Shown one piece after another: positions 1 to 15,367 of a DNA stretch of 15,367 nt (position 1 is the stretch's first letter; each line of letters opens with the position of its first letter). The DNA comes from Gemmatimonadota bacterium. GTDB taxonomy: Bacteria > Gemmatimonadota > Gemmatimonadetes > Longimicrobiales > Gaopeijiaceae. Made by a program: the position numbers and the translations under genes. The notes under the pieces were generated by a model. That model saw only the letters and a list, made by a program, of their open reading frames with translations. It did not search any database and was not told the origin of the DNA. The stretch covers positions 1-15,367 of the forward strand of contig JBDHHQ010000151.1 of the NCBI GenBank assembly GCA_039589315.1, in the 5' to 3' direction.

Positions 1-325
1 CGGCGGGAGACGGAGTCGGCTACCACGATAGGGCACGGGGTCGTCAATCGCACGACTTTCGTTCGCCGGCGATTGGCGAAATGTTCAGCGGTCCGCAGAA
101 GTGTGCCGCTTCATATCGGGGTCGCTGAAAGAGGGCGTGGTTCAAACGCGATCCCGTGTGCGCCTTAGTGTGCCGATTGGTGTGCCAACCAGGCCGCACT
201 GGGGAATACGGAGAAGAACAGGCCCGAAGAGCGGGGGGTGCTAAGTGGTTGACCCACAGCATCATACACACACTAGAACCAACTTACCCTAACTCCCAGA
301 AACACCCCGAAAACTGAATGGGGTT
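1..325 (+). repeat. Inter-cassette repeat copy R1 (promoter + GTGTGCC arm-like repeats + tRNA-Pro-derived core)
   Basis: Aligns by eye with 3007-3318, 6901-7077, 10030-10357 and 13128-13447. GTGTGC(C/G) at 101, 156, 168 and 180. Core CTGAATGGGGTT at 314-325. Confidence 0.9.
25..53 (-). promoter_or_regulatory. Putative sigma70-like promoter GTGCGA-N17-TATCGT for a gene starting just left of the window
   Basis: The same motif with exact 17-nt spacing precedes all four kinase starts in the window. Bases 1-53 closely match 10030-10082, which precede the ATG at 10021. Confidence 0.6.
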
Positions 326-2978
326 GTCTTAGCTCCTCGGAGAACCCCTCTACCACGACGAGATCGCCTACCGGGCCCGACGTGGTTGCCCTCACCATAA
401 TGAAACGCTCGTCGTCGGGCATGACGTCATACATCCGATGGGCCCTCAGCGTTCGATACGGAAGTGCGGAAAACAACACGCGCTGCTCGCCATGGTCGAA
501 CGTGGGGGTTGTGCTGACTGCCACAGACACCATGTCACCATCGCCGCTTCGATAGAAGAGTTCTCGGCCGCTGTGAGCCCACACCGGTTCAGTGCCCCCA
601 GAGATCGATATGCGCGACTTTTGCGCCTGTACCTCGGGGAACGGCACGACGTACACTTCGGCTGATCCGGTCTCGGTCGAGACGTAGGCCAGCCAGTCTC
701 CTCGCGGGGAAAGGGCCGGGGAATTCTCGAGGTAGGGCGAACCTAGTAGAACCGTCGGTTCGCCGCTGGCGTCGGCAGGCAACATCAGGATGTCCCCCCC
801 ACCGGCGGTGCCTCCGTCAGTTCTGTAGACGAGTCGACTTCCGTCAGGAGACCAGACCAGCTCGGCGACACCTCGTTCGCGGTCGAGTACCAACTGCTCA
901 TCTCCCCCGCCGTCGGCCCGCCTCATCCAGACATCGATGAGCGCCAGTCGATCGGATCCGTAGGAAACCCACTGGCCATCGGGGGTCCATTCCGGTCTCA
1001 TGTTCCTGAGGCCCTCGAAGCTCAATCGAAGCGGGGAGCCTCCATCCAGCTGCTTGACCCAGACGTCACTGCCTGTTGGCCCTTGGATCGCGAAAGCGAG
1101 CCTGTCGCCACCCGGCGAGAGTGCCAGTGCGTTGAACTTCTCGGTCCATCCCGGATCGACGGCACGTGCTGAGCCATCTCTTCCAACGTACATGAGCTCG
1201 CCTTCGCTCTGGAGGGTCCCCCTTCCATACACCAGCGAGCCACCGGCGCTCGACAGGTCCATGTCCAACGAGCCGAGCTCTGCCACCATCACGCCGTCCG
1301 ACAACGCGACCGATGCGCCGGTGACTTCTAGACGATCTTCATCGAACGGCACGGCCAACAGCGTGCCTTCGGCGGAGACGTACACGAGATGACCCGTGGT
1401 GGAATACCTCACTCGGACTCCGGGTACCAGGACCTCGTAGTCGCCAGTGCCCGGATTCGCGACCGCGATCTGGTATCGGCTCACGTCCGTGGAAGGAGTA
1501 CCGAGTACGGTGAAGAGGACGCCTCGACCACCCGGGAGGGCGATGGGTGCCACGTGGCCCGTTTCCCCCGCATCTGCATCGATGCGTGTCACGGATTGCA
1601 GCGAGCCCCCACCTTCTTCCACTCGCACCAATCCCTCGTCCGAACCCACGTAGATGTGGCCGTCCGAACCCCAGGTATGGCCCAGGCGATTCAGCATACC
1701 ATTCAGTTCACCACGGAGGATCTCGACAGGGGGTTCACCGCTCAATGAAACGACCCGAAGCGCTTCAGCCGGTGTTCCCACCAGGAAGGCCACCCTCTCG
1801 CCATCCGGAGAGAAGGCCGGATTGTACCCGCCTTCCGTGCCGGCTAGGGAGGTCGGTTCCAACTCGTCCCGTTGGCGTGTCCACAGCTGATAGCCAGTGA
1901 GGGGACCGACGAACACAAAGTGCGATCCATCCGGCGAAATGGTGACACGGGAGGCGTGACGCTGAGCGAGCTGGGGAGGTTGGCCCAGGTTCAGATGGTA
2001 CCGGCTGACCATCGCGGTTCGACTGCTCTGACGCCCCAACACGGCCCAGGCGAGCGCGAACGCCGAGACAGCAGCGACGCTCGCCGCTAGAAGGGTTGAA
2101 CGATTCCTCGCCCCGCCCCGGGGTGGCCCTGCCCCATGCGCGAAGTCGGGATCGGCTAGCGCCTGTGCGAATCGCTGAGCGCTGGAAATCCGGTCCGCCG
2201 GCAATCTTTCCAGCGCCTTCTGGATCGTTGCGTCCACATTGGCCGGGACAGACGACCTGGTCTTCTTCGCGGAGACCGGGTCGCCCGTGATGATCTTGCC
2301 GAGGATCACCTGTGCCGAGCTTCCGGTGTGAGGGGGGTCGCCGACCAACATCTCGTATAGCACACAGCCGAGCGCATAGATGTCCGCTGCGGGACCTACG
2401 GTCTGCTCGCCGGTGGCCTGCTCCGGGCTCATGTAGTGGGGAGTGCCCAGACTCAGGCCGGTCTCGGTAAGTCGACTCCCTCCGGCTACCCCCACCGCCA
2501 GCGCGATGCCGAAATCAGCGACGAGTGGCTCGCCACCGCTCAACAGGATGTTGGCGGGCTTGATATCTCGATGGATGACGCCCTTGTCGTGAGCCGCGTG
2601 GAGCGCGTTCGCGACGGCCGTGGCGACCCGTACCGCCTCATCGACTGGGAGCTGCTTGTCGCGGTCCAGCCTGTCCCTCAGGCTCTCCCCCTCCACGTAG
2701 GGCATGACGTAGAAGAGGAAGCTGTCGGCTTCGCCCGAATCGAACAGCGGCAGGATGTGTGGATGCTGGAGGTTGGCTGTGGTTTCGATTTCTGCGAGGA
2801 ATCGATCCGCACCGACGACGGCAGCCAACTCAGGCTTCAGGACCTTCAACGCGACGTTGCGGTTGTGCTTGAGGTCCTTGGCGAGATAGACGGTGGCCAT
2901 CCCGCCCTCACCGAGCTGGCGCTCGATGCGGTAGCGGCCTTCCAGGGCGGCGTTGAGACGGGTGACGGGATCGGACAT
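273..2978 (-). CDS. Ser/Thr protein kinase with TM helix and TolB-like (PD40) beta-propeller repeats (kinase 1, 901 aa)
   Basis: Motifs [37 protein letters not shown]. Hydrophobic segment LLAASVAAVSAFALAWAVLG, then repeated (W/F/I)SPDG blades. Start reassigned from 3065 to ATG 2978 ([17 protein letters not shown]). The last 17 codons read into repeat R1. Confidence 0.93.
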   Translation of the reverse strand: MSDPVTRLNAALEGRYRIERQLGEGGMATVYLAKDLKHNRNVALKVLKPELAAVVGADRFLAEIETTANLQHPHILPLFDSGEADSFLFYVMPYVEGESLRDRLDRDKQLPVDEAVRVATAVANALHAAHDKGVIHRDIKPANILLSGGEPLVADFGIALAVGVAGGSRLTETGLSLGTPHYMSPEQATGEQTVGPAADIYALGCVLYEMLVGDPPHTGSSAQVILGKIITGDPVSAKKTRSSVPANVDATIQKALERLPADRISSAQRFAQALADPDFAHGAGPPRGGARNRSTLLAASVAAVSAFALAWAVLGRQSSRTAMVSRYHLNLGQPPQLAQRHASRVTISPDGSHFVFVGPLTGYQLWTRQRDELEPTSLAGTEGGYNPAFSPDGERVAFLVGTPAEALRVVSLSGEPPVEILRGELNGMLNRLGHTWGSDGHIYVGSDEGLVRVEEGGGSLQSVTRIDADAGETGHVAPIALPGGRGVLFTVLGTPSTDVSRYQIAVANPGTGDYEVLVPGVRVRYSTTGHLVYVSAEGTLLAVPFDEDRLEVTGASVALSDGVMVAELGSLDMDLSSAGGSLVYGRGTLQSEGELMYVGRDGSARAVDPGWTEKFNALALSPGGDRLAFAIQGPTGSDVWVKQLDGGSPLRLSFEGLRNMRPEWTPDGQWVSYGSDRLALIDVWMRRADGGGDEQLVLDRERGVAELVWSPDGSRLVYRTDGGTAGGGDILMLPADASGEPTVLLGSPYLENSPALSPRGDWLAYVSTETGSAEVYVVPFPEVQAQKSRISISGGTEPVWAHSGRELFYRSGDGDMVSVAVSTTPTFDHGEQRVLFSALPYRTLRAHRMYDVMPDDERFIMVRATTSGPVGDLVVVEGFSEELRQPHSVFGVFLGVRVSWF

Positions 2979-3006
2979 GCACTCCTCGGGGAACACGGGC
3001 ACCGCT

Positions 3007-3035
3007 ACGATAGGATCCCGCCGGTCAACGCGCAC
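3007..3035 (-). promoter_or_regulatory. Putative promoter GTGCGC-N17-TATCGT of kinase 1
   Basis: TATCGT on the minus strand at 3007-3012, 17-nt spacer, GTGCGC at 3030-3035. About 29 nt upstream of ATG 2978. Confidence 0.6.
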
Positions 3036-3318
3036 GGTCTCGAGTCTCTTGAGGGATCGCTTCACCGGGAACGCGTCCGAGAAGTGTGCCGCTCATGACC
3101 GGAGCCCTCCGAGACCGCAGGTTGCGTTAGGCGCTCCGGTGTGCCCGTTAGTGTGCCGCTTGGTGTGCCAACCAGGCCGCACGGGGGAAGACGCAGAAGA
3201 ACAGGCCCGAAGAGCGGGGGATGCTAAGTGGTTTACCCACAGCACCCTATGCCGCACTGGGTTCAACTCACCCGAACTCCCCGAAACACCCCGGATTCTG
3301 AATTCTGAATGGGGTTCA
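3007..3318 (+). repeat. Inter-cassette repeat copy R2
   Basis: GTGTGCC at 3084, 3139, 3151 and 3163. Core CTGAATGGGGTTCA at 3305-3318, overlapping a 7-nt tandem duplication (TTCTGAA x2). Confidence 0.9.
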
Positions 3319-3366
3319 CGCGTTGTCGCGGATTCAGTGGGTCAGTTTGGCTCAAACCGCTTCAGC

Positions 3367-6057
3367 TCACCTACCAACGCGCTGCCCGACTTCCTCCCAC
3401 CAGTTCATTGCGAGGATGAGCTGGTTGGTGTCGCCCTCTCCAACGTCGAAACGGACCATCAAGAACCGCCCGTCCGGAGCGACATCGTAGAAGGCGTAGT
3501 TGGTGATCACGTTCAGTGCTCGCTCATCAACGTTGAAAAGGGGAATCCGTTCCCCGACCTGGAGGCTGCCGCCGACTGCCTCGACTCCGACGGCAGTCAA
3601 GAAACGGTCCGCGTTGACGTAGTACAACTCGTCTCCTGAGGGCGCCCATCTGGGAGCGATACCTCCGTTCGTCGATACCTGCCACTTGCCGGCATCCACG
3701 TCAGGGAACGGCCGGACATAGATCTCGTCCTGGCCGGTCTCCGTCGATTCGTACGCCAGCCACCGGCCGTTGGGCGATAGAGCCAATGATTTCTCGTCGT
3801 ACTCTTCGGCCGCCAGTGGCACGGTCACCGAGTCCCCGACCTGTATTCCCACGATATCCCGGCCGCCGGTCACGTTGGCGGCTCCGCCCAGCCGCAACAC
3901 GAACCAAGTCTCATCTGGATTCCGTTGGACCTCGAGGATTGGCTGCTCGAGATCAAGCAGGAGCTGCGGGGTCCCCGTGCCATCAGCCATTCGCTCCCAT
4001 AGATCCCGGTTTTCGCCACGCTCCGACACGAACATGATTCGCTGGCCATCCGGTGACCATCGTGGTCGCCGGTCGAGGTCCTCGTGGAATGTCAGGCGTG
4101 AGAGTGGTCCACGGTCGAGTTGTTTGACCCAGATGTCCTCGCCGGCGTCCGAATGGACTTTCAGGGCGAGGCGAGTGCCATCGGGGGACACCGCGACGCC
4201 GATCTCGGCAGCTCCGGAGGACGACGGTGACGAGCCGTCGAACTTCCACTCCGAGTCGACGGGGTCCACCGTTCCCTCGCGTGTGACCCAAACCGCCTGG
4301 AAGAGTCCAGTCTGCGGCGGACCGGTCTTGTACAGGAGACTTCCGTCCTCCGACAAGCTGAACTGGGATTGAGATCCGCCTTTCACCTGCACGCCTGGAA
4401 TCATGGCCACAGGTGAACTCATTAGCTCGAGACGGCTTGCGTCGAACGGAGCGACCATGAGCGTCCCATCAGCGGCGGTGTAAAGGAGGTGCTCCGACGA
4501 CGAATACCTCGCCATCGCTCCGGTCACGAGATCGTGGACCTCCTTGGTCTCGAGATCGATTCCGACGATGCGACTGTTGGTCGGTGGTCCGTTTGCGAGG
4601 GTCGCGAGGATCGTCTGGCCTCCCGGTAGGCCCCGCGGCATCCGGTAGATGCCTTCTTCCGGGGGAGGAACCACCTCCTCCGGCTCACCCCCAGCAGCGA
4701 GTACGCGCAGAATGGCACCTTGGCCGGACGCGTAGTACACCCACCCATCCGATGACCATGTCGCCCCACCGAGGCCCCCTTCAGCCACCAGGCGGAACGG
4801 CGGCCCCCCAGCGAGCGAGGCGACGCTCAACCCTCCCTCTGCAAAGAAGACGATCGATTGGCCATCGGGCGAAAACGCGGGGCTCAGTCCGTTTTGTGTT
4901 CCGTTGACCGGGTGGGGCTCGATGTCATCGAGCCTGCGCTGCCATATCTGTGTACCGCCGGCGTTGGCAGGACCGACGTAGGCAAAGCTGGATCCGTCGG
5001 GGGCCAGGTCGAACTCGACCCAGGGTGTACCGGGCACCAAACCCTGCCCGGTCTGGAACACCATCGTGAAGCGGGCCGTTCGCGAGACTTCCGCGCCTCT
5101 AGAAAGGACCGAAAAGCCGAGAGCTACCGCGAGAAGAACAGCGAGTACGCCCGATCCGAGAGCGAACGGTTTCCACGAACGCGCGGCGCTTGCCGAAGCG
5201 AGCGCCGCGTCTCCGAACTGATAACGGGGGCTCGTCAATGCATCGGCGAACCCTTGAGCCGAGGCGAATCGGTCTGCGGGCAGCTTTTGCAGCGCGCATC
5301 GGAGAGCCGCGTCGACGTTCGAGGGAATCGAGGCCCGAATGGCCGTGGGCTGCCGGGCGTCCTCGGTGAGGATCTTCGCGAGGACGGCCTGGGCGCTGGG
5401 TCCTGTGTAGGGTGGCTCGCCGATCAGCATCTCGTAGAGCACGCATCCCAACGAGTAGACGTCGCTGGACGCGCTCGGCACGCGGTCCGCTGACGCTTGT
5501 TCGGGGCTCATGTAAAACGGTGTCCCCATCGACAAACCGGTCTCCGTCAGCCGGCCGCCGCCAGCCGCGCTAACGGCGAGCGCAATCCCGAAGTCCGCAA
5601 CGAGAGGTCTCCCACGTGACAAGAGGATGTTGGCCGGCTTGATGTCGCGATGGATGACGCCTTGGTCGTGAGCCGCTTGGAGTGCTTCGGCCACATCCAG
5701 TGTGATCCGAATGGCCTCGTCCACCGGCAGCTGCTGTTCTCTGCCTAACCGCTCGCGTAGGCTCTCGCCCTCGACAAATGGCATGACGTAGAAGAGGAAT
5801 CCGTCCGCCTCGCCGGAATCAAACAGCGGCAGAATGTTCGGGTGTTGCAGATTGGCGGTCGTCTTGATCTCGGCCAGGAAGCGCTCGGCGCCGACCACGG
5901 CCGCCAACTCGGGTTTCAGCACCTTGAGCGCCACTTTGCGCTCATGGCGTACGTCGTCAGCCAGGTAGACGGTCGCCATGCCCCCCTCACCGAGCTCGCG
6001 CTCGATGCGGTAGCGGCCTTCGAGGGCCGCGTTAAGCCGCGTGACGGGATGGGACAT
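3367..6057 (-). CDS. Ser/Thr protein kinase with TM helix and TolB-like beta-propeller repeats (kinase 2, 896 aa)
   Basis: Intact kinase motifs ([37 protein letters not shown]), TM FALGSGVLAVLLAVALGFSVL and SPDG repeats. Start reassigned to ATG 6057 (MSHPVTRL, RBS GGAGG). Confidence 0.93.
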   Translation of the reverse strand: MSHPVTRLNAALEGRYRIERELGEGGMATVYLADDVRHERKVALKVLKPELAAVVGAERFLAEIKTTANLQHPNILPLFDSGEADGFLFYVMPFVEGESLRERLGREQQLPVDEAIRITLDVAEALQAAHDQGVIHRDIKPANILLSRGRPLVADFGIALAVSAAGGGRLTETGLSMGTPFYMSPEQASADRVPSASSDVYSLGCVLYEMLIGEPPYTGPSAQAVLAKILTEDARQPTAIRASIPSNVDAALRCALQKLPADRFASAQGFADALTSPRYQFGDAALASASAARSWKPFALGSGVLAVLLAVALGFSVLSRGAEVSRTARFTMVFQTGQGLVPGTPWVEFDLAPDGSSFAYVGPANAGGTQIWQRRLDDIEPHPVNGTQNGLSPAFSPDGQSIVFFAEGGLSVASLAGGPPFRLVAEGGLGGATWSSDGWVYYASGQGAILRVLAAGGEPEEVVPPPEEGIYRMPRGLPGGQTILATLANGPPTNSRIVGIDLETKEVHDLVTGAMARYSSSEHLLYTAADGTLMVAPFDASRLELMSSPVAMIPGVQVKGGSQSQFSLSEDGSLLYKTGPPQTGLFQAVWVTREGTVDPVDSEWKFDGSSPSSSGAAEIGVAVSPDGTRLALKVHSDAGEDIWVKQLDRGPLSRLTFHEDLDRRPRWSPDGQRIMFVSERGENRDLWERMADGTGTPQLLLDLEQPILEVQRNPDETWFVLRLGGAANVTGGRDIVGIQVGDSVTVPLAAEEYDEKSLALSPNGRWLAYESTETGQDEIYVRPFPDVDAGKWQVSTNGGIAPRWAPSGDELYYVNADRFLTAVGVEAVGGSLQVGERIPLFNVDERALNVITNYAFYDVAPDGRFLMVRFDVGEGDTNQLILAMNWWEEVGQRVGR

Positions 6058-6074
6058 TGGGCCTCCGTTACGAG

Positions 6075-6617
6075 TCAGACCGCCTTCACGATAGGGCAGC
6101 ATGGTCCCGATCGCACGGTTCGCGTCACAGAGGAGCAGGGCGGTCGGTCCCCATTGGACACTTGATAGCCCGGAGGTCGGTCCATCCAACTGAAGCCCAG
6201 ACCGATCTGACAAATCAACGAGGCTCTGGCCTCCGTGTAGACCCCCAGCACGGTCTCACGCAGCCGCAGGACGTCGTCGAAGCCCGGTGCGCGCTCGACT
6301 CGAATGGTGATCTGTCGTACCGCCGTGCTGGGCGCCAGGGCAGAATTGGTCCGAGAGTTCGCCCGGGCCCGCTCGATTCTCAACAGTTCGTTTTGCAAGG
6401 GCTGAACCTGGGACTCGGCAGCCGACACCGACTGGTCGACACGCGTCTTCAGATCCAGGGCTTCCCTACCGAGGGGATCGGACAGGGTGCCGCGAAACTG
6501 GCCGTTCCGGATCGATGCGTCGATGGCGTTCAACGTCTCCATCTGAAGCGCCACGGACCGGGTGGCGCCCTCGACGATCAGCGGTACCTGGGCCGCGTTG
6601 CTGAGTCCGGGCCGCAC
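6075..6617 (-). CDS. Hypothetical protein or gene fragment (helical, coiled-coil-like)
   Basis: 180-codon ORF with protein-like composition over roughly the first 130 aa. No recognisable family and no well-spaced RBS. Its 3' end overlaps the kinase 2 promoter. Confidence 0.35.
   Translation of the reverse strand: MRPGLSNAAQVPLIVEGATRSVALQMETLNAIDASIRNGQFRGTLSDPLGREALDLKTRVDQSVSAAESQVQPLQNELLRIERARANSRTNSALAPSTAVRQITIRVERAPGFDDVLRLRETVLGVYTEARASLICQIGLGFSWMDRPPGYQVSNGDRPPCSSVTRTVRSGPCCPIVKAV
6088..6116 (-). promoter_or_regulatory. Putative promoter GTGCGA-N17-TATCGT of kinase 2
   Basis: Same motif and spacing as the other copies, about 31 nt upstream of ATG 6057. Here the arm/core part of the repeat is absent. 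Confidence 0.6.
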
Positions 6618-6628
6618 CCTCTCTACCG

Positions 6629-6900
6629 TCAGTTCGGCACAAGCCGCCTCAACTCCTCGAGGAAGTTCTCGACCAGGACGGTCGACCGGGTATCCGCTTG
6701 GCCCGACATCTTGGGTCGGGCCATCAGGAACCGTGTGTCGTCGAGGTCCACGTCGTAGAAGTCGGCGACGCCAGCGACACTCATCGGGTATTCGTCCGGG
6801 ACCCCGAAGAGCGTGCGCAACTCGACGCGCCTGAAGACGTCGCCGTCAGCCTCGTACTCGGCCGAAACCAACTCACGCGTGTCGGGATTCGCGAAGAACC
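6629..6900 (-). pseudogene. C-terminal remnant (~90 aa) of another kinase/beta-propeller paralog
   Basis: ...FYDVDLDDTRFLMARP...VLVENFLEELRRLVPN* matches the C-termini of kinases 1, 2 and 4 (YDV.PD..RF.M...LV.V..F.EELR). Upstream it is fused directly to truncated repeat R3. Confidence 0.85.
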
Positions 6901-7077
6901 CGCTTAGTGGGCCAACCAGGCCGCACGGGGAGAGACTGCGAATAACAGAAGCGAAGGGCGATGGTCGTAAGTGCCTGTCTTGAAGCACTCTAACCGACCT
7001 GTAGCCAACTCACCCAAACTCCCTGCAACACCCCCAATACTGAATGGGGTTCACGGGGTTGCCGGTTCGAATCCGAC
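6901..7077 (+). repeat. Inter-cassette repeat copy R3 (left-truncated at the GTGTGCC trio)
   Basis: Begins CGCTTAGTGGGCCAACCAGGCCGCAC and continues in register with the other copies to the core at 7040. Confidence 0.88.
7040..7077 (+). other. 3' fragment of tRNA-Pro(GGG) (att-like; not a functional tRNA)
   Basis: CTGA-ATGGGGT-TCA anticodon arm with GGG anticodon, GGGGT variable loop, and T-arm GCCGG-TTCGAAT-CCGAC. No D arm or acceptor stem. Confidence 0.85.
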
Positions 7078-7081
7078 AAGG

Positions 7082-8546
7082 TCACCGATCAGGCGGCGCA
7101 CGATATAGACTCGGCAGACGCGCAGCCCGGTAGACATGCCACCCGTTCGGAGCGTCGTCTTCGATGACGAGCTCGAACACCTTTTGCGGGGGCGTCGTAT
7201 GGGTTACCTCGACGATCCGCGCCGACCGACGCCCATCCGACGCGTCCGTCGCCATGCCCTGCGCGTCCGTGATTCGAGCACCATCCGTGACCAGAACGTT
7301 CCCGGTTAGAGGCAGCCAGTCCGTATCGCTGATGAACGACGAGTAGAAGTGGTCGCCCTCCTGGTCCCCATACGACCAGACCTGGCTGACCCCCATGGTC
7401 GACTCGTCCACGGCATATTCCACGGCTCGACTGTATGGCTCCGAGATTGGTGGGCCGTCTTCGATGGGTCCGCCGCGATTGGTCCCGTTGTCGAAAAGCA
7501 GGATTGTGCCGTGCGGGGACACCTTGGCGGCGTGTTGATGGTTGGGCCAAACGAGCTCCCCACTCGGCGCCAGGAGGTAGGGGGCCCAAGCCTCGGTCCA
7601 ACCTGTGTGGTCACCGAGAATCCACGCCAGCTGACCGGTCGCGAGGTCCACCTTCACCACGGCATCCTGGCGACGTGCTGAAACGATGACCGACTCATCA
7701 CGCTCGTCGTAAAAGGCGGCATTGACGTGCGACCAGTCGACCAACCGACCCTCGTACATCCCTTCGTACGAGGATTCCCAAAAGCCCCCCCAACCGTTGG
7801 GCTGGAAGCCGTCCGAAACGGATCCAGCACGTCGAGCAACCTGACTTCCCGCAGAACGGCTCCATCCCTGTTGAATTCGACCAGTACGTCGCCCACCACG
7901 GTCGCGCTTTCAGTCGGAGCCTCCGGATCGATTGAGCTGGTAGGATAGTCGTCGTAGGTCCGTAGCTCGCTGCTTACCGTCATCAGGGTCCCCGAGGGCA
8001 ACTCAACTCCGCGATCTCGTGGTGAAGAGTGTCGGTGTCTACGGGCGTGCTTTCCTGGGACGTCTCCTTTGGAGTGCCTGTCGCGTGCCAACGCTCCACG
8101 ACGTTGCCGAGCATGTCGATCTCCGTCGCTAGGCCGTTTCGCCCGGACGCGTAGAGCAGGTTGCCGTTCGCGAGCTGGATCACATCGCCGATGCCGTGAT
8201 CGGCGCGATAGTACCAAACGATCTCACCCTGGCTGTCGACAGCGAGCATGGCTGCAAACCCACTACCTCCGCCCTCGCCACACTTCATCAAGTTGAAAAG
8301 AGTGACGCCGGGTTCCATCTCTCCAGATAGGACCTTTGTAGCGACCAGCCTGGGAAAGTCGTCCGGCAATGGCTCCGTCCGGAACTCGATGGGATCTGAC
8401 GCAGTCTCGTTGCCCGCGGCATCGGTCAACATGACGGAGATCCGGTGATCGGTGTCAGACCGAAGCCCGAGAACGGGCACATCCAGCTCCGCAGCGAGTT
8501 CCGTACTCACGACGGAGCTCCATTGGTCGCGACCGTCGTCGGTCAC
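7082..8546 (-). pseudogene. Arylsulfotransferase (ASST)-family pseudogene, 5'-truncated with two frameshifts
   Basis: Three consecutive frames give an N-terminal VPVLGLR Ig-like segment, HHE, DWSHVNA, SARRQD, QHAA, FDNG, YSRAVEY and YRAAR. Frameshifts occur at a 5-nt duplication (~7999-8009) and near a C7 run (7785-7791). The 5' end is cut at the IS110 end. Confidence 0.85.
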
Positions 8547-9015
8547 TGATATGAAAGGGCTGGGGTCAAGAGGCTGGAGAACCCGGGGACAGCTTCGACG
8601 ATGATCCTACTGATACTCGCCGGTTACGCGGTGGACCGCGCAGAGCGGGATTAAGATTCGTCTGGAGCCAGCCGGACTCTAGCATCGGGGATCCGGCCCC
8701 GAGTGGGGGCCTGCCGCATAGCGACGCCGGGCGTTCTCCTATCGTGCCCCGGGTCCACCAAGCCTCAGGAGTCTGACGTTGGCGCGATGATGGGTCAGGC
8801 GGCCTCGTCGAGTCGAAGGTTGTCGGTAGCGGGCTCCTGCATGACGGCCCAGAGGAAGCCGACGAGCTCACGGGCGGCGGCGACCACGGCGATGCGAGAG
8901 GACTTCCTGGCGGCGATCCTGTGATAGAGCTTGTGCAGGCGATGCTGGGCCTTCCAGGCGTGGGCCACGACATGGGGCGGCGCACCGTGTTGTCGTCGCT
9001 TTCGCTGAGGGTGCC
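8546..9015 (-). mobile_element. IS110-family remnant: transposase C-terminus plus ~250-bp right non-coding end
   Basis: 8795-~9010 encodes RRQHGAPPHVVAHAWKAQHRLHKLYHRIAARKSSRIAVVAAARELVGFLWAVM, the typical IS110/IS116/IS902 transposase tail. The downstream end finishes ...CTTGACCCCAGCCCTTTCATATCAG exactly where the ASST gene is truncated. The boundary with kinase 3 (~9015) is approximate. Confidence 0.8.
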
Positions 9016-10021
9016 GCGCGCGGGACCGGTTGTGTCGAGCGTGCCACGGCATACCCGCCGGCCAACAAGGCGCCGCCGAGCACTGCGGTGAGCCAGACGG
9101 GGACGCCGCGGCCCGGCCTCGAGGCGGCTACGGGCGTCGGAGCGGCGGCTGGCGCTGCGGCGGAGCGCGGCGCTGCGGCGTACGTAAACGCCTCGTCCTC
9201 GAGCGCATCCATGAACGTCTTCGCGCTCTCGAAGCGGTCGGCCGGTAGCTTTTCGATGGCCTTCGCGACCGCGGCGGCGACGTGACGCGGTACGGTGTGC
9301 CGGAGCTCGGTGAGCGGCCGCGGGCTCTCGGTCAGGATGCGCACGAGGATAGACTGAGCGCTGGGGCCCGTGTGCGGCGGCTGCCCGGCGATCATCTCGT
9401 AGAGAACGCATCCCAGGCTGTAGACGTCCGACCGTGCGCTCAGGTCGCGGTCCGCGCTGGCCTGTTCTGGGCTCATGTAGTGCGGCGTGCCTAGTGACAG
9501 GCCCGTCTCGGTCATGCGCCCGCCCCCCGCGGCGCTGATCGCGAGCGCGATGCCGAAGTCGGCCCCGACGGGTCGGCCGTCGTGGAGCAGCACGTTGCTG
9601 GGCTTGATGTCGCGGTGGATCACCCCTTGCCGGTGCGCGTAGTCGAGTGCATCGGCCACGTCACGGGCAATCCGGACGGCTTCGGAAACGCCGAGCTGCT
9701 TCTCGTGGTCCAGCTTCTCCCTCAGCGTCTCGCCGTCGATGAACGGCATCACGTAGTAGAGGAAGCCGTCAGCCTCACCCGAGTCGAACAGCGCGAGGAT
9801 GTGGGGATGCTGGAGGTTCGCGTCCTCTTGATCTCGGCCAGGAAGCGCTCAGCCCCGATTACGGCAGCGAGCTCCGGGCGGAGAATCTTGAGAGCGACGT
9901 TCCGCTCATGCTTCAGATCCTCGGCCAGATAGACCGTGGCCATGCCGCCTTCGCCGAGCTCGCGCTCGATTCGGTAGCGGCCTTCGAGGGCGGCGTTCAG
10001 ACGGGTGACGGGATCGGACAT
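9016..10021 (-). pseudogene. Ser/Thr kinase paralog 3, frameshifted and truncated after the TM helix
   Basis: [16 protein letters not shown] start. A 1-nt deletion at ~9822 (AAG AGG AC GCG AAC instead of K-T-T-A-N) shifts the frame. The second frame has HRDIKPSNVLL, DFG, YMSPEQ and TM VWLTAVLGGALLAGGYAV, then joins the IS110 remnant. The propeller is absent. Confidence 0.88.
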
Positions 10022-10029
10022 TGGTACCT

Positions 10030-10357
10030 CGGCGGGAGACTGGGTCGGCTACCACGATAGGGCACCGGCTCGTCAATCGCACTACGGTCGTTCGCCAGCG
10101 ATTGGCGAAAGATGCTCAGCGGTCCGCAGAAGTGTGCCGCTTCACATGGGGTCGCTGAAAAAAGGCGTGGTTCCAACGCGATCCGGTGTGCGTTTAGTGT
10201 GCCGCTTGGTGTGCCAACTGGTCCACACTGGGGAAAACACAGAAGAACTTGAGCGAAGAGCGATGGCCGTAAGCGCTTATCCTGAAGTACTCTAACCGAC
10301 CTGTAACCAACTCACTCCAACTCCCCGAAACACCCCGAATACTGAATGGGGTTCAGG
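10030..10357 (+). repeat. Inter-cassette repeat copy R4
   Basis: GTGTGC(C/G) at 10132, 10186, 10197 and 10209. Core CTGAATGGGGTTCAGG at 10342-10357. Confidence 0.9.
10054..10082 (-). promoter_or_regulatory. Putative promoter GTGCGA-N17-TATCGT of kinase 3
   Basis: Conserved motif with 17-nt spacer, about 33 nt upstream of ATG 10021. Confidence 0.6.
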
Positions 10358-10410
10358 CCTTGTCGGGGATTCAGTGGGTCAGAGACTACGAGCAACCGCT
10401 CTCCGCTCGG

Positions 10411-13095
10411 TCAGCCCTCCGGAACGATCTGTCGCAACTGCTCGGCGAACCCCTGTACTAACACGAGCTCCGACCCTCGTCCGGCCATTCGCTCCGGCAA
10501 TCTGCCCATGAGGAACCGCCCGTCCGCTGCTACATCGACGAATCCATAGCCCTGGTTTATCAGGTACTCCGGCCCCAGCGTGAAGAGCGCGTCGCGGGAC
10601 CGCACCTCGAAGCCACGTGAGGTGGACACCTGGGCCGCCAGGAGTCGCCTGTCCGGCGTCACGAAGAACAACTCCGACCCGTCGTGAGACCAAATGGGCG
10701 TGTGTCCGCCGTCTGTTGAGACCCGAAGACGTCCGGAACCCGTGTCCGGGAAAGGTCTCACGTAGATCTCCCACGCACCGGTCTCATTGGAATAGTAGGC
10801 AATCCAGCGCCCGTCCGGTGAGATCCTGGGCATCAACTCGAAGAAGTCCTCCGAAGTGACCAGCGGCACCAGGGAATCGGAAGCACCCGGTTCGACGCCC
10901 CAAATGTCCTGTTCGCCACGGGGTACCGTGGGATCGCTATTCACGACCACGAGCCACTCCCCGTCGGGGCTCCAGTGCTTCTGGGTGAGCGGTGGTTCGG
11001 GATCGATCAACAGCGTGGGGTCGTCGGCCCCGTCCGCTCGCCTCTGCCAGACGTTATAATCCCCGTATTCACCGCTGCTGTACGTGATCGACTGGCCGTC
11101 CGCCGTCCAGACGGGATACCGCTCCTCGGCTTCCGAGAACGTCAGCCGGTCGAAGGGTCCGTCTGGAAGCTGCTTGATCCAAATATCCCAGTTACCGTCA
11201 ACCACGCGGGTCGTGGCGATCCGCCGACCGTCGGGCGAGAGGATCCACGCGTACCCGCCATCGAGCCCCGGATCGTAGCGCCACAGGGGGTCGACAGGAG
11301 CAGCCTCGCCGGAGCGAGAAACCCACACGAGTTCCGCCATCTGAGTGTCGCTGGCTCCCCCCGTTCGGTAGATGAACGAGCCATCCGTCGAGATCGCGTA
11401 GTCCATCACGTCGAACTCGCTCCGTATCCCGACGTCGTGCAGCAGCCGGGTCGGTGACCCCGAGAGCTGAGCCCTTCGCGTGTCGAGCGGTACCGCGAAC
11501 AGCGCGCCGTCGGTCGTTCCGAACAGGAGGTGTCCCGTCGAGGCGATATCCGGATTGCTCCCCGCCGTCAGTACATGGCGGTCTCGAGTCTCGAGATCCA
11601 GCACCCAGATCTCGGCGTCCGTGGCGTTCCGGTCGTACCACACCTGGAAGACCGCCTTCGTCTCGCCGGGAAGGAGTCTCAGGTGGCCGTGTAGAATCTC
11701 GCCCTCCGATCGCTGGGCGAGCGTGTCCACGGGTCCGCCCGAGTAGGGCACACGAGCCAGGTTGTTGTCGGGTGAGGGGGTCAGGAAATAGACGTGGCCG
11801 TCCTCGCCCCAGTCGCTCACGCGCCCCGCTTCGTCGACCAGCACCCGCGGCGGCGACACTCCATCCAACGGTACGATGCTCAAGGTTCGCTGCGCTGAGA
11901 CGGCGATCTCCCGTCCGTTGCGGGAGACCGCGAACGACGTCACCCCCTCGGTTCCCGGAACAGGCGTCGCCTCGAGGTCCGCCCACCGTCGCACCCATAG
12001 CTGGCTTCCCACCCCGGTCGGGCCGGGCCCTATGTACACGAGCGCCGATCCGTCCATCGTGAACCGCATTGGGCCCGTCGGTTCCTGACCGTCTCGGAAC
12101 GGCGTCTCGAACCGGGCCAACCGTGGTGGGGGCTCGGGTGCAAACGTCGTCCATGCCAGCGCGACGGCGAGTGCAGCGGCCACGACGGAAGCCGCGATGG
12201 CAGTCCACTGCCAGATGCGTGAGCCGTCTACCCCGGAAGGCGCCAAGGCCCCGTGACGGAAGTCCGGATTCGACAACGCCGTGACGAAGCCGTGCGCTGA
12301 CGAGAACCGATCCGCGGGGAGCCTCTCCAGAGCCTTCCGAATCGCCGCATCCACGTGGGGAGGCACGGCCGTCCGCTTGGCCATGGCAGATGCCGGGACA
12401 CCGGCAATGACCTGGGCGAGCACTGCCTGGGCCGTGCTGCCGATGTAGGGTGGATCCCCGGTCAGCATTTCGTAGAGCACACAGCCGAGGGCGTAGACGT
12501 CGGTCGCGGGACCCAGGGCCGTGTCGCCGGTCGCCTGCTCCGGGGACATATAGTACGGAGTGCCCACCGACATTCCCGTCTCCGTCAGCCGGGTTGCGCC
12601 CGCGGTGCCGACGGCAAGCGCGATCCCGAAGTCGGCGACGACCGGTTGACCGTCCTGGAGCAGGATGTTGCCCGGCTTGATATCCCGGTGGATCACGCCG
12701 CGGCCGTGGGCGTGATGGAGTGCCTGCCCCACGGCCTTCGCGATGGCGACGGCCTCTTCCACGGGGAGTTGCCGATCGCGGTCCAGCCGCTCTCGCAGGC
12801 TCTCTCCCTCCACGAGCGGCATAGCGTAGTAAAGGAAGCCGTCGGCCTCGCCTGAGTCGAACAGAGGTAGGATGTGGGGATGCTGCAGATTGGCCGTGGT
12901 CTTGATCTCGGCCAGGAAGCGCTCAGCGCCCACGACCGCGGCGAGCTCGGGCTTCAGAACCTTGAGGGCGAGCTTCCGCTCATGCTTCAGGTCGTCGGCG
13001 AGGTAGACCGTGGCCATCCCGCCCTCGCCGAGTTCGCGCTCGATACGGTAGCGGCCTTCGAGGGCCGTGTTCAGCCGGGTGACGGGATCGGACAT
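10411..13095 (-). CDS. Ser/Thr protein kinase with TM helix and TolB-like beta-propeller repeats (kinase 4, 894 aa)
   Basis: Motifs [62 protein letters not shown] repeats and the family C-terminus LVLVQGFAEQLRQIVP. Confidence 0.95.
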   Translation of the reverse strand: MSDPVTRLNTALEGRYRIERELGEGGMATVYLADDLKHERKLALKVLKPELAAVVGAERFLAEIKTTANLQHPHILPLFDSGEADGFLYYAMPLVEGESLRERLDRDRQLPVEEAVAIAKAVGQALHHAHGRGVIHRDIKPGNILLQDGQPVVADFGIALAVGTAGATRLTETGMSVGTPYYMSPEQATGDTALGPATDVYALGCVLYEMLTGDPPYIGSTAQAVLAQVIAGVPASAMAKRTAVPPHVDAAIRKALERLPADRFSSAHGFVTALSNPDFRHGALAPSGVDGSRIWQWTAIAASVVAAALAVALAWTTFAPEPPPRLARFETPFRDGQEPTGPMRFTMDGSALVYIGPGPTGVGSQLWVRRWADLEATPVPGTEGVTSFAVSRNGREIAVSAQRTLSIVPLDGVSPPRVLVDEAGRVSDWGEDGHVYFLTPSPDNNLARVPYSGGPVDTLAQRSEGEILHGHLRLLPGETKAVFQVWYDRNATDAEIWVLDLETRDRHVLTAGSNPDIASTGHLLFGTTDGALFAVPLDTRRAQLSGSPTRLLHDVGIRSEFDVMDYAISTDGSFIYRTGGASDTQMAELVWVSRSGEAAPVDPLWRYDPGLDGGYAWILSPDGRRIATTRVVDGNWDIWIKQLPDGPFDRLTFSEAEERYPVWTADGQSITYSSGEYGDYNVWQRRADGADDPTLLIDPEPPLTQKHWSPDGEWLVVVNSDPTVPRGEQDIWGVEPGASDSLVPLVTSEDFFELMPRISPDGRWIAYYSNETGAWEIYVRPFPDTGSGRLRVSTDGGHTPIWSHDGSELFFVTPDRRLLAAQVSTSRGFEVRSRDALFTLGPEYLINQGYGFVDVAADGRFLMGRLPERMAGRGSELVLVQGFAEQLRQIVPEG

Positions 13096-13127
13096 CGGTG
13101 TCTCGGCGAGAGAAGCAAATCGCTCTC

Positions 13128-13156
13128 ACGATAGGACACCGGCTCGTCAATCGCAC
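13128..13156 (-). promoter_or_regulatory. Putative promoter GTGCGA-N17-TATCGT of kinase 4
   Basis: Conserved motif with 17-nt spacer, about 33 nt upstream of ATG 13095. Confidence 0.6.
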
Positions 13157-13416
13157 GACATTCGTTCGCGAGCGATTGGCTAGGTGTTCAGACGTTCGCA
13201 GAAGTGTGCCGCGGCACCTTGGGGTCGCCGGATGAGCGCATGGCCGCAGGGCGACTCGGCGTGCGGACTAGTGTGCCGCTTGGTGTGCCAACTGGGCCGA
13301 ACCGGAAGAAACTCAGAAGAACGGGAGCGAAGAGCCGTAGGTGCTAACCCCTTTTCCTACAGCACTCTAGCTAACCTCAGGCCAACTCAGCGGCACTCCC
13401 CGAAACACCCCGAATA

Positions 13417-13447
13417 CTGAATGGGGTTCAGGGGGTCGCCGGTTCGA
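13417..13447 (+). other. 3' fragment of tRNA-Pro(GGG) (att-like; not a functional tRNA)
   Basis: CTGAATGGGGTTCAGGGGGTCGCCGGTTCGA: anticodon arm (GGG), variable loop and 5' half of the T arm with GTTCGA. Confidence 0.85.
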
Positions 13448-13477
13448 GCCGAGCGGCCACTTGGGTGCAGCGTGAAG

Positions 13478-13511
13478 ACGGGGCCTCCCAGGATACCCTG
13501 GAAGGCCCCGT
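13478..13511 (-). terminator. Stem-loop, probable terminator of the SH3-like gene
   Basis: ACGGGGCCTCCCAGG-ATAC-CCTGGAAGGCCCCGT forms a 15-bp stem. Its single C/A mismatch becomes a G-U pair in minus-strand RNA. It lies 47 nt after the stop codon. The U tract is weak. Confidence 0.6.
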
Positions 13512-13558
13512 TCCTGGAGGGTGCCGCTAGATACTACTCGGGTTTCGTCGGGCTCGGG

Positions 13559-14047
13559 CTATCGCCAGATCCACCGCACCCAGTTGCCGTGGACCCAGCC
13601 AGACCTGCAGGGCCCCCGGTACGACTCCGGGTCCGCCAACTGCTCGGCGCCCGCGTAACACTCCGCCGCTTCCTGACCCTCTTGGGGGTAGACGACACCG
13701 TGCCAGCCGTTCTCGTAGTCGCACAGAATCACGAGGTCGCCATTGTGAAGCTCGTCAATCTGCTCGTGGTCGGTGCCAGGTCCCGTGCGCACCGCAAGGA
13801 ACCCGTCGCCCTGGGGGTCGAGTCCCTGGATCTCGCCCCGAGACGGACAAGGATCCATGGTCGGCTGGCTGACGTGCGCAACGGTCATGCGGTCCGCGTC
13901 CTGGGCGTGCACCTGCTGCGGCAGGAGCGGCAGGAGCAGCAGAACGGCGGTTCCGACCAGCGCCGACGTTGTTACCCCACCGGGGCGTCGGTGGCGACGC
14001 CACGCTTCGGGGTTGTTTGCGTTCGAATCGAAAGGCCGTGTAGGCAT
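13559..14047 (-). CDS. Secreted bacterial SH3-like domain protein
   Basis: RBS GGAGGA and signal-peptide-like ALVGTAVLLLLPLLPQQVHA|Q. SH3_3-like GFLAVRTGPG...IDELHNGD...GWHGVVY...SGWVH, with four Cys. Confidence 0.8.
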   Translation of the reverse strand: MPTRPFDSNANNPEAWRRHRRPGGVTTSALVGTAVLLLLPLLPQQVHAQDADRMTVAHVSQPTMDPCPSRGEIQGLDPQGDGFLAVRTGPGTDHEQIDELHNGDLVILCDYENGWHGVVYPQEGQEAAECYAGAEQLADPESYRGPCRSGWVHGNWVRWIWR

Positions 14048-14144
14048 CGTTCCTCCGCAGCTTCAGAAGCGTCGGTCGGGAGCCCTTATCACAACCATCG
14101 GCACACCGCGCCGATTCGATTAGTCATCGTGCGATGGTCGGGGT

Positions 14145-15367
14145 CTACCGATTCGCGTCGTCCACTCGCCGCTTCATGTCCTCCACGAAGCCCGGGATGA
14201 CCCGGACATAGTAGCCGAGGCTCTCGGTCGGCGAGCGCTTGTAGACGACGTCGCCGTCCGGCATGATCTCGAACGACTGGCCGGGGGTGTCCGCGAAGTG
14301 GGCGTCCGAGACGATCGATTCAGGGCCCTCGAACGGAGGATCCCGGGCGGGATCGATCGTTACCGAGTAGAGTCCGGCGCCGCTGGACACGGTGGCCGTG
14401 TCGCTCAGGAATGCCCAGTAGACCAGCTCCGTAGAAGACGCCCATTGCGGATCTTGCCCGCTCGGATCGATCAGATAGCGACGATCCAGGTCGGGCCAGG
14501 GCTGAAGCTGAATGCCGGGGGTCGACTGGTTCTGATAGGCGATCCAGCGACGGTCTGGGGAGATCTCTACAAAGAATGCATCGACACCGATCGGCTCCAC
14601 CGTCGGAGGACTCGAGGTCAGGTCGATCATCTCGGCTGATCCCGAGCCCGAAGTCTGTCCAACGAGCAGAGAATCGTCGGCCAGGTAGGTCGTCGGAACC
14701 ATGTACAGGTACGGGTCACCCGAAAGAAGGTCCTTCGAGCCGGCGTTGGAGTCGATCTCCAGAGACGCAATCGCGTCGCTCTCCGGAGTCGGGAACCTCG
14801 CAAAGACGACGTGCCGCCCGTCCGGGCTCCACACCGGCGTCCCCACGTAGTTGGCACGCTCCAGAGTCTGAAAAGCCCCCGTTCGGAGGTCGTAGATGCA
14901 CAGCTCCTGCTCCGGAGGCCGTCGATGACCGACGCGAACGAACGGCCATCGGGGCTCACGGTGAACCGCAGGTGGATGGCCGTCACCGTCCGACCCGGCG
15001 CCATACCGGAACGCGGGGTCGCCGAGCGCTCGAGCGAGCTCGTCGGCGGTCGCAAACCGATCCGCCGGCAGACTCTGGAGTGCTCTTCGGATCGCTCCAT
15101 CGACATTCGCCGGCACGGACGGTCGATGCTCGGCCGGAGCCACGGGGTCGCCGGAGAGGATCTTGCCCAGCACCGCCTGGGCGGTGCTGCCCGTATACGG
15201 CGGATCGCCCACGAGCATCTCGTAGAGCACGCAGCCCACTGCGTAGATGTCGCTGGCCGGACCGACGTGTTGATCGCCGGTGGCCTGCTCCGGGCTCATG
15301 TAGTACGGCGTACCGACGCTGAGCCCGGTTTCCGTCAGTCGCGCGCCCCCGGCAGCACCGACCGCCA
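14145..15367 (-). CDS. Ser/Thr kinase paralog 5 (5' end outside window), internally deleted (no TM or first propeller); possibly a pseudogene
   Basis: RLTETGLSVGTPYYMSPEQ...LPADRF, then after about 45 aa WSPDG/ISPD propeller repeats and C-terminus VRVIPGFVEDMKRRV. No hydrophobic helix between the two parts. Confidence 0.8.
   Translation of the reverse strand, partial: AVGAAGGARLTETGLSVGTPYYMSPEQATGDQHVGPASDIYAVGCVLYEMLVGDPPYTGSTAQAVLGKILSGDPVAPAEHRPSVPANVDGAIRRALQSLPADRFATADELARALGDPAFRYGAGSDGDGHPPAVHREPRWPFVRVGHRRPPEQELCIYDLRTGAFQTLERANYVGTPVWSPDGRHVVFARFPTPESDAIASLEIDSNAGSKDLLSGDPYLYMVPTTYLADDSLLVGQTSGSGSAEMIDLTSSPPTVEPIGVDAFFVEISPDRRWIAYQNQSTPGIQLQPWPDLDRRYLIDPSGQDPQWASSTELVYWAFLSDTATVSSGAGLYSVTIDPARDPPFEGPESIVSDAHFADTPGQSFEIMPDGDVVYKRSPTESLGYYVRVIPGFVEDMKRRVDDANR

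Follow-up and report, generated by a model that had tools for sequence, protein, structure and literature searches.

What could have set a row of receptor-kinase genes, one behind another, between repeated fragments of a tRNA gene? This question is raised by a 15,367-nt stretch of DNA from a soil-type bacterium of the Gemmatimonadota (GenBank contig JBDHHQ010000151.1; hereafter the window), which is the entire contig C151 of a genome bin labelled G000 (6.67 Mb, 288 contigs, 67.5% GC, 5% contamination). Repeats divide the window into units. An earlier interpretation made from the letters alone (the sequence-only reading) had placed all cargo on the minus strand and a kinase in each unit. Indeed, the long open reading frames (ORFs) are all on that strand, and Pfam assigns to every unit a gene with Pkinase and PD40 domains or a frameshifted remnant: three complete genes, one kinase truncated at the contig end and one frameshifted kinase remnant, in addition to an arylsulfotransferase pseudogene in three frames. 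The evidence below supports the repeats as derivatives of an integrase attachment (att) site at tRNA-Pro(GGG). On balance, we favour the view that the window is part of a composite island region, in which islands accreted and decayed at this tRNA gene in the manner of cis-mobilizable elements (CIMEs) and an old kinase-kinase junction was copied and converted. Genomes used for comparison are G001 (same genus), G038 (same order), G010 (a closed relative) and G355, G363 and G405 (other genomes).

The repeat and its tRNA-Pro(GGG) core

All five repeat copies described by the sequence-only reading are present, with cores (CTGAATGGGGTT) at 314, 3305, 7040, 10342 and 13417. About 170 nt to the left of each of the five cores can be aligned, with 68% mean column identity, and the repeat exceeds its first description: homology among units extends over the full ~330 nt that separate the core from the kinase ATG. 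Homology of the units spans their whole ~3.07 kb, with a regular spacing of 3075-3079 nt. The ~150-nt part adjoining the core is here called M1; in many contexts, its outer border recurs near model position 233-243. M1 is separable from the kinase leader, M2, as M1 with the core is found without M2 and M2 without M1.

When a 23-mer covering arm and core was searched for with at most 2 mismatches, 7 of 401 genomes of the order contained it, this genome with 12 copies and each of the others with 1-3. The reversed 23-mer, used as a control, had 0 occurrences among the 401 genomes, and the abundance of the repeat exceeds chance. A profile of the repeat identified 16 core-bearing copies on five contigs (C151, 5; C42, 7; C210, 2; C156, 1; C124, 1). 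The array on C42 is the larger, with eight kinase genes, PadR/FtsX, an aminotransferase and a PKD protein. At its edge (C42:63019-67272) lie a gene for an extracytoplasmic function (ECF) sigma factor (PF07638) and a gene joining a Ser/Thr kinase (STK) to tetratricopeptide repeats (TPR; STK-TPR).

The only tRNA-Pro(GGG) gene of the bin is at C68:21809-21883. Comparison of this host gene with the core showed a match that begins with the 5' strand of the anticodon stem. The claim that each repeat ends in a tRNA piece starting at the anticodon stem stood in part: all five cores correspond to tRNA positions 28-39/41, but the extent of the tRNA portion is graded, not uniform. The match covers 12-14 nt in all five window copies. 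Only two of the five (7040 and 13417) continue into the T arm, and the one at 13417 is identical at 31/31 positions. In two others (3305 and 10342), an insert of 18 nt leads to a tRNA-like stub of 9 nt, and in the copy at 314 the match ends after 12 nt. At C42:47955, the match is 47/47 and reaches the tRNA 3' end.

The core is the best conserved part of the repeat, with a mean pairwise identity of 0.92-0.93 over its 20 nt compared with 0.57-0.79 over the rest of M1, and the anticodon-loop stretch is intact in 12 of the 16 cores. ARAGORN reported 0 tRNA genes in the window, and Rfam gave no tRNA there, only four matches at chance level (E 2-6). The sequence-only reading had proposed cassettes that carry promoters; scans of the window found 0 sigma-70-type promoters (1.9 expected) and 2 intrinsic terminators (7 expected), none of the latter within the repeats. 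A reading of the repeat as a structured RNA was rejected, as the RNAalifold consensus of 14 copies reached only -3.6 kcal/mol with 0 compensatory pairs.

At the border of M2 and M1 (~165-215, 3150-3200, 10195-10245 and 13270-13320), there are three to four direct repeats of the type GCACAC / GTGTGCCAAC at 11-12-nt spacing. A related form of these leader repeats occurs in genus g10, and they could be sites for a regulator or distal integrase-arm sites.

The integrase and the attachment-site arm

The sequence-only reading had predicted an intact tRNA-Pro(GGG) and a tyrosine integrase with a recombination directionality factor beside the array. Both were found in the same bin, but on contig C68, apart from the window. 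The integrase (C68:21977-23146, 389 aa, PF00589 at E 9e-16) lies on the opposite strand, 94 nt after the intact tRNA, and is preceded by a Xis-like ORF (C68:23146-23496) that is 49-65% identical to HTH_17 proteins preceding integrase homologs elsewhere. Comparison of contig ends joined only C151 and C155; no overlap was found for C68 or C42. The tRNA fragments share one orientation within C151 and one within C42, and the intact tRNA is on the separate contig C68. The units were said to be free of integrase genes, and this held: Pfam and tblastn with the C68 integrase detected none, neither in the window nor in the 72-kb sister array.

This integrase belongs to a common family, with 404 proteins at E <= 0.001; the best 119 outside the query's own cluster are 62-73% identical. 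At 5 of 7 loci in other genomes, a tRNA-Pro gene is found ~95 nt away from the homolog. The interval between the tRNA and the integrase stop codon is similarly built in 5 of the 6 genomes compared: a hairpin comes first, and two heptamers of the GTGAGTT type follow at +64/65 and +76/77 past the tRNA, a spacing of 12 nt. These heptamers are the reverse complement of a heptamer in M1, AACTC[AC][CG]. Relative to the core, the M1 heptamer is placed at -33 and/or -23, as seen in 8 of 11 repeat copies of this genome (G000) and in 11 of 11 copies from other genomes; the genome-wide background is 0.13 per kb per strand.

The island of G405 connects M1 with this integrase family. It begins with the tRNA and the integrase and, 12.7 kb on and in the same orientation, has an M1 homolog (nhmmer E 6e-13, model positions 37-239) with a complete tRNA 3' half. 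No kinase was found within the 1.5 kb read on either side of this scar. Because the island ends in M1 plus a tRNA fragment, M1 is identified as the P arm of the attP/attR sites of this integrase family. The att-like character proposed for the repeats was thus borne out by the tRNA match and by the end of the G405 island, and the two support the repeats being attachment-site derivatives.

In other genera, M1 with its core flanks genes for an amidohydrolase, an oxidoreductase, a peroxiredoxin and other proteins; only 3 of 9 sites have a kinase on their M1 side, and M1 is often without a gene downstream in the sense direction. In G355 (G355:C4:1213553-1215390; L053, L056), two M1-core sites in the same orientation, 1.8 kb apart, bracket a single amidohydrolase gene. 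One of them has the tRNA 3' half, and the other is an insert-type junction beside the C-terminal remnant of a kinase. A metagenome contig has a 3.5-kb block between two tRNA-Pro fragments with no integrase inside.

Two further observations concern integrases and tRNA genes of this bin. At C119:1496-5687, a paralogous tyrosine integrase, 39% identical to the one on C68, is directly upstream of another kinase-PD40 gene, and the same contig has an integrase fragment beside tRNA-Gly(CCC). On C68, 3 kb from tRNA-Pro(GGG), 18 tRNA genes lie on one strand (C68:16206-18887); this array includes a tRNA-Pro(CGG)-like pseudo-tRNA bearing the T-loop element described below.

Two kinds of junction and the age of the kinases

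The features of the window are as follows. Two kinds of right flank follow the cores: in type A the core continues into the tRNA T arm, and in type B it is followed by the 18-nt insert and the 9-nt tRNA-like stub, which contains the stop codon of the next kinase.

1-313, minus strand: 5' region of kinase gene K0 (M2, then M1), K0 itself lying beyond the left contig end; repeat family D2, 1-261 versus 2984-3244
314-327, plus strand: core 1; tRNA identity stops after 12 nt, and the C-terminal codons of K1 adjoin directly
324-2978, minus strand: K1, receptor Ser/Thr kinase with Pkinase, one transmembrane-type linker and a PD40 propeller (listed ORF 273-3065)
2979-3304, minus strand: M2 and M1 upstream of K1; M1 is the att P arm, with AACTC[AC][CG] at -40 and -30 from the core
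3305-3345, plus strand: core 2 with type B right flank, the 18-nt insert and then the tRNA-like stub GTGGGTCAG; repeat family D12
3382-6057, minus strand: K2, receptor Ser/Thr kinase (listed ORF 3367-6213)
6049-6899, minus strand: M2 tail (6049-6140) and ~760 nt of unrelated spacer, with two ORFs without Pfam match (6075-6617 and 6629-6988)
6900-7039, minus strand: M1 (P arm) alone, with no M2 attached (nhmmer 7077-6900, hmm 56-233)
7040-7085, plus strand: core 3 with a decayed tRNA-Pro(GGG) 3' half (type A, attR-like); 2 mismatches over ~37 nt, then divergence
7082-8546, minus strand: arylsulfotransferase pseudogene in three overlapping frames (PF05935 on 7082-7759, 7654-8217 and 7983-8546)
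8566-10021, minus strand: kinase remnant, Pkinase split across ORFs 9749-10021 and 8868-9752, propeller gone
10022-10341, minus strand: M2 and M1 upstream of the kinase remnant
10342-10382, plus strand: core 4 with type B right flank; repeat family D12
10411-13095, minus strand: K4, receptor Ser/Thr kinase of 894 aa, with peak hydrophobicity at residues ~297-318
13096-13416, minus strand: M2 and M1 upstream of K4
13417-13458, plus strand: core 5 with tRNA-Pro(GGG) 28-58, 31/31 identical, joined at the T loop to ~18 nt of a T-loop-splitting repeat element
13559-14047, minus strand: small ORF with a weak SH3_3 match under the Pfam cut-off
14145-15367, minus strand: C-terminal part of K5, whose gene runs on into contig C155; upstream it has an M2 tail only, no M1

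Position 1 of the window aligns 6 nt upstream of the ATG of a paralogous kinase (nhmmer match 360-1, hmm 5-405). At the other end, 15254-15367 overlaps C155:11794-11907 by 114 nt in reverse complement, and K5 continues there. The single strongly hydrophobic segment that follows the kinase domain of K4 suggests receptor-type kinases with the propeller facing outward. Between 7082 and 8546, the broken arylsulfotransferase directly follows the tRNA scar and is fused to the propeller-less kinase remnant.

Six type A junctions were found in the genome (7040 and 13417 in the window, C42:47955, C42:39584, and one each on C156 and C210). Their scars differ in length and in state of decay, and the 47/47 scar at C42:47955 sits beside flanks that are only ~80% identical. 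In the window and on C42, the cargo after these scars is of non-kinase type: the arylsulfotransferase, the SH3 ORF, the PKD protein and PadR/FtsX. All type B junctions, on the other hand, have a single derived 18-nt insert, which argues for descent from one ancestral junction. Type B-like forms were also found in two other genera (G355 and G363) and on metagenome contig L080, and genus g10 has an insert-free form of the junction with variable flanks. Type B sites are without the P' arm and its two heptamers. The reciprocal attL expected for them, a tRNA 5' half joined to a type B flank, was not found in the assembly. A look through public sequencing reads for positions 6000-10400 of the window listed no run.

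The closest pair of junctions is only 89% identical, and there are no near-identical units. Breakpoints of recombination also fall inside the repeat, at the border of M1 and M2, and not in the core alone. In the pairwise-identity matrices that bear on this point, the background is ~72% and only the strongest pairs were used. Junctions up to 89% alike, together with the peak of conservation at the core, point to selection on the site, gene conversion, or both.

The scar at 13417 ends in a repeat element of its own interest. This T-loop element of ~95 nt is inserted exactly between the two halves of the tRNA T loop (GGTTCGA ... TCAATCC), and the T-stem strands on either side of it remain complementary. 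The hairpin of the element is conserved, with a GAAG loop and a co-varying stem, and imperfect terminal inverted repeats are also present. Fifteen full copies were collected, 13 from this genome and one each from G355 and G010. The element was located at 13441-13458 in the window, at C27:37364-48450, on C142 and C184, at C68:16470-16770, and at L056 and L036. It had no match in Rfam, and it may be an element of the miniature inverted-repeat transposable type that targets T loops, or else a so far undescribed RNA.

The kinases are old, and their family is widespread: 27 of 41 genomes match at E <= 1e-40 (with at most 22 matches scored per genome), and full-length comparison of the paralogs in this genome gave 40-65% identity. 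It paired 6 of 7 array kinases most closely with a kinase outside the arrays (48-62% identity), which excludes recent local duplication and argues against simple tandem duplication. The sequence-only reading had named such duplication as the outcome that would count against it, and the array kinases are not each other's closest paralogs. A quick tree, based on an unfinished search and with weak support, likewise interleaves M1-linked kinases with others. The GC content at third codon positions is 0.78 for array kinases versus 0.835 for other kinases, and three array kinases are broken.

The arrays were not found in the assembly of the congener G001. Its DNA is 88-94% identical to parts of C68 and to C42:24-30 kb, whereas C151, C155 and C42:33-63 kb gave only paralogous kinase-domain matches of at most 84%, and no copy of the repeat was found in this assembly. 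When C68 and C155 were compared for synteny with the region around tRNA-Pro in the closed genome G010, only kinases matched.

Explanations weighed and their meaning

The explanation that we favour would run as follows. The region would have been built at, or derived from, a tRNA-Pro(GGG) attachment site, and its repeat is an att derivative of three parts. The P arm, M1, is ~150 nt long, and its paired AACTC[AC][CG] sites are ~23 and 33 nt away from the core. The core, of 14-20 nt, is identical to the anticodon stem-loop of the tRNA, the presumed place of strand exchange by tyrosine integrases of this class. The right flank is of type A or type B. A type A flank would be the displaced tRNA 3' half, an attR scar, and so mark a separate insertion of an island block. 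Inserted blocks would have carried non-kinase cargo and one or more receptor kinases, and older blocks would have lost their integrase and become CIME-like. Segmental copying and gene conversion would have spread the one old kinase-kinase junction, with the type B junctions as its copies. Sites in better condition could still be substrates for the integrase/Xis pair at the intact tRNA. We infer this order of events, as we do any recombination of the present day.

Several observations weigh against this account. The contig with the tRNA and the integrase, C68, is linked to the arrays only through the shared bin, with its 288 contigs and 5% contamination. As tRNA-Pro(GGG) is nearly identical across the phylum, even the 47/47 match is no proof of linkage. 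The anticodon-loop stretch is changed in 4 of the 16 cores. Type B-like forms in other genera indicate that these junctions were inherited or copied and not made afresh, and the scar at 13417 shares its T-loop insertion with a scar of genus g10 and is therefore old or was transferred as a block. By a crude measure, M1 and M2 of one unit differ in their nearest relatives, which points to homologous exchange. Three tandem kinases without an intervening repeat lie at C42:51-59 kb, and eight tandem kinase-propeller genes at G038:C5:1330-23252, in a genome where neither a 208-nt repeat query nor the 23-mer found a copy; these repeat-free arrays show that plain duplication also operates in the kinase family. 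Finally, the G001 assembly is fragmented and 94% complete, so that the arrays count there as not found, not as proven absent.

A rival explanation has segmental duplication as the only process, with a unit of one kinase and an old attR scar multiplied by unequal crossing-over, and with no further site-specific events. The similarity of the junctions would then have been kept by gene conversion and by a role as promoter, operator or terminator of the kinases. The homology over the whole ~3.07-kb unit and its 3075-3079-nt spacing, the one insert common to all type B junctions, the exchange at the M1/M2 border and the repeat-free tandem kinases of C42 and G038:C5 all agree with it. We nevertheless regard it as unlikely, though worth serious attention. 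The six T-arm scars vary in length and state, one being 47/47 amid flanks of ~80% identity, and they adjoin different non-kinase genes; 6 of 7 array kinases have their best match outside the arrays; M1 with its core occurs without kinases in other genera; and no sigma-70-type promoter, terminator or conserved RNA fold was detected in the repeat. Far less can be said for a merely incidental likeness to the tRNA, under which the repeat would serve to regulate the kinase family, for instance as a promoter recognized by the ECF sigma factor encoded next to the C42 array. The sense strand of the core reads TGAACC, which we take to resemble ECF -35 boxes; the ECF sigma gene (PF07638) and the STK-TPR gene flank that array; and M2 contains the phased GCACAC repeats. 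However, tRNA 3'-half matches of 47/47 and 31/31 cannot be incidental, an M1 homolog closes the G405 integrase island with no kinase within 1.5 kb of the scar, and M1 in other genera often has no downstream gene in the sense direction. We consider this explanation very improbable.

The sequence-only reading had proposed independently mobile cassettes. In this form, the array would be a live, integron-like store in which ~3-kb circles, each with a single kinase and one M1-core site, are moved by the tRNA-Pro integrase acting in trans. The units are compact, and the kinase stop codon lies in the tRNA-like stub, so that a single gene with a single site would make up a 3.07-kb circle. Conservation is highest in the core and the proximal arm, 12 of 16 cores keep the anticodon-loop stretch, and an integrase and a Xis-like gene are present in the bin. 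The amidohydrolase gene between two sites 1.8 kb apart in G355 and the 3.5-kb integrase-less block of the metagenome contig also fit. The claim of independent mobility was nonetheless not upheld: the second (P') arm and its pair of heptamers are missing from type B sites, the reciprocal product is not in the assembly, no units are near-identical (the top junction pair reaches 89%), 4 of 16 cores are altered and three array kinases are broken. Such a store is quite improbable in our estimate. That the M1-core sites are live, with the integrase/Xis pair reshuffling ~3-kb receptor-kinase modules as an exchangeable library of periplasmic sensor kinases, we rate as doubtful.

Under the CIME-like accretion that we favour, the arrays have known counterparts. 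CIMEs have lost their integration genes and kept their att sites, and a resident integrase can act on several such sites (Pavlovic 2004; Bellanger 2011; both as summarized in Guedon et al. 2017, PMC5704250). The units here are likewise bounded by M1-core sites with no recombinase inside. The CIME accretions described in that review, as far as the passages used here extend, join two or three units derived from integrative and conjugative or integrative and mobilizable elements, in Firmicutes and Streptomyces. By comparison, there are at least 16 sites on five contigs here, units are as small as one 3-kb gene, and one paralog family dominates. No conjugation genes are in view.

The islands catalogued by Islander have an integrase beside a regenerated tRNA gene (tDNA) and a displaced 3' tDNA fragment at the far end (Hudson et al. 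2015, PMC4383910). In the account given there, the block of identity runs from the anticodon stem towards the 3' end, as in the window cores. As stated in the same source, each member of an Islander tandem array requires its own integrase and fragment, and a table of that source counts 125 tandems of at least two and 4 of at least three among 3919 islands. By contrast, the units of the window and of C42 are all without an integrase. Tycheposons of Prochlorococcus, as outlined by Hackl et al. (10.1101/2020.12.28.424599), integrate successively at one tRNA and displace older elements inward; partial tRNAs and degenerate elements scattered through the island are common to both cases. They differ in phylum and integrase and are defined by hallmark genes of their own, and no single-family cargo array figures in the portion of the description drawn on here. 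The ssrA-linked islands of Dehalococcoides, known to us from a brief description, share with this region the cargo of one paralog family and integration at a single small-RNA gene (McMurdie et al. 2011, PMC3146451).

The arrays also share with integrons the compact, mostly single-gene units in one orientation, a recombination-type site for each and one integrase for all. However, no IntI, attI or Pc was found in the window, C42 or C68, where the only integrase is the tRNA-Pro-linked PF00589 protein. The sites have no conserved fold and, rather than being attC hairpins, go back to an arm-bearing att site of a tRNA gene, and every unit comes with ~330 nt of upstream region of its own. A literature search on tRNA/integrase islands of Gemmatimonadota and on kinases at tRNA-Pro attR sites did not find this arrangement. 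Even so, the earlier statement that no system of this form had been described was too strong, with CIME accretion, Islander tandem islands and tycheposons as close precedents. The region looks like an unusually large case of a known process, island accretion at a tRNA gene.

If this explanation is correct, a large accessory set of sensor kinases would have been assembled through the attachment site of an integrase and not by local duplication. The set would combine one conserved cytoplasmic kinase domain with highly divergent periplasmic propellers, and the idea of CIMEs and their accretion would extend to single-gene units and to a little-studied phylum. With its 16 core-bearing copies and the core as the best-kept part, the locus is suited to testing the recombination competence of integrase-less modules. 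Should the sites prove to be live, they would make up an integron-like cassette system derived from a tRNA att site with an arm in place of attC hairpins.

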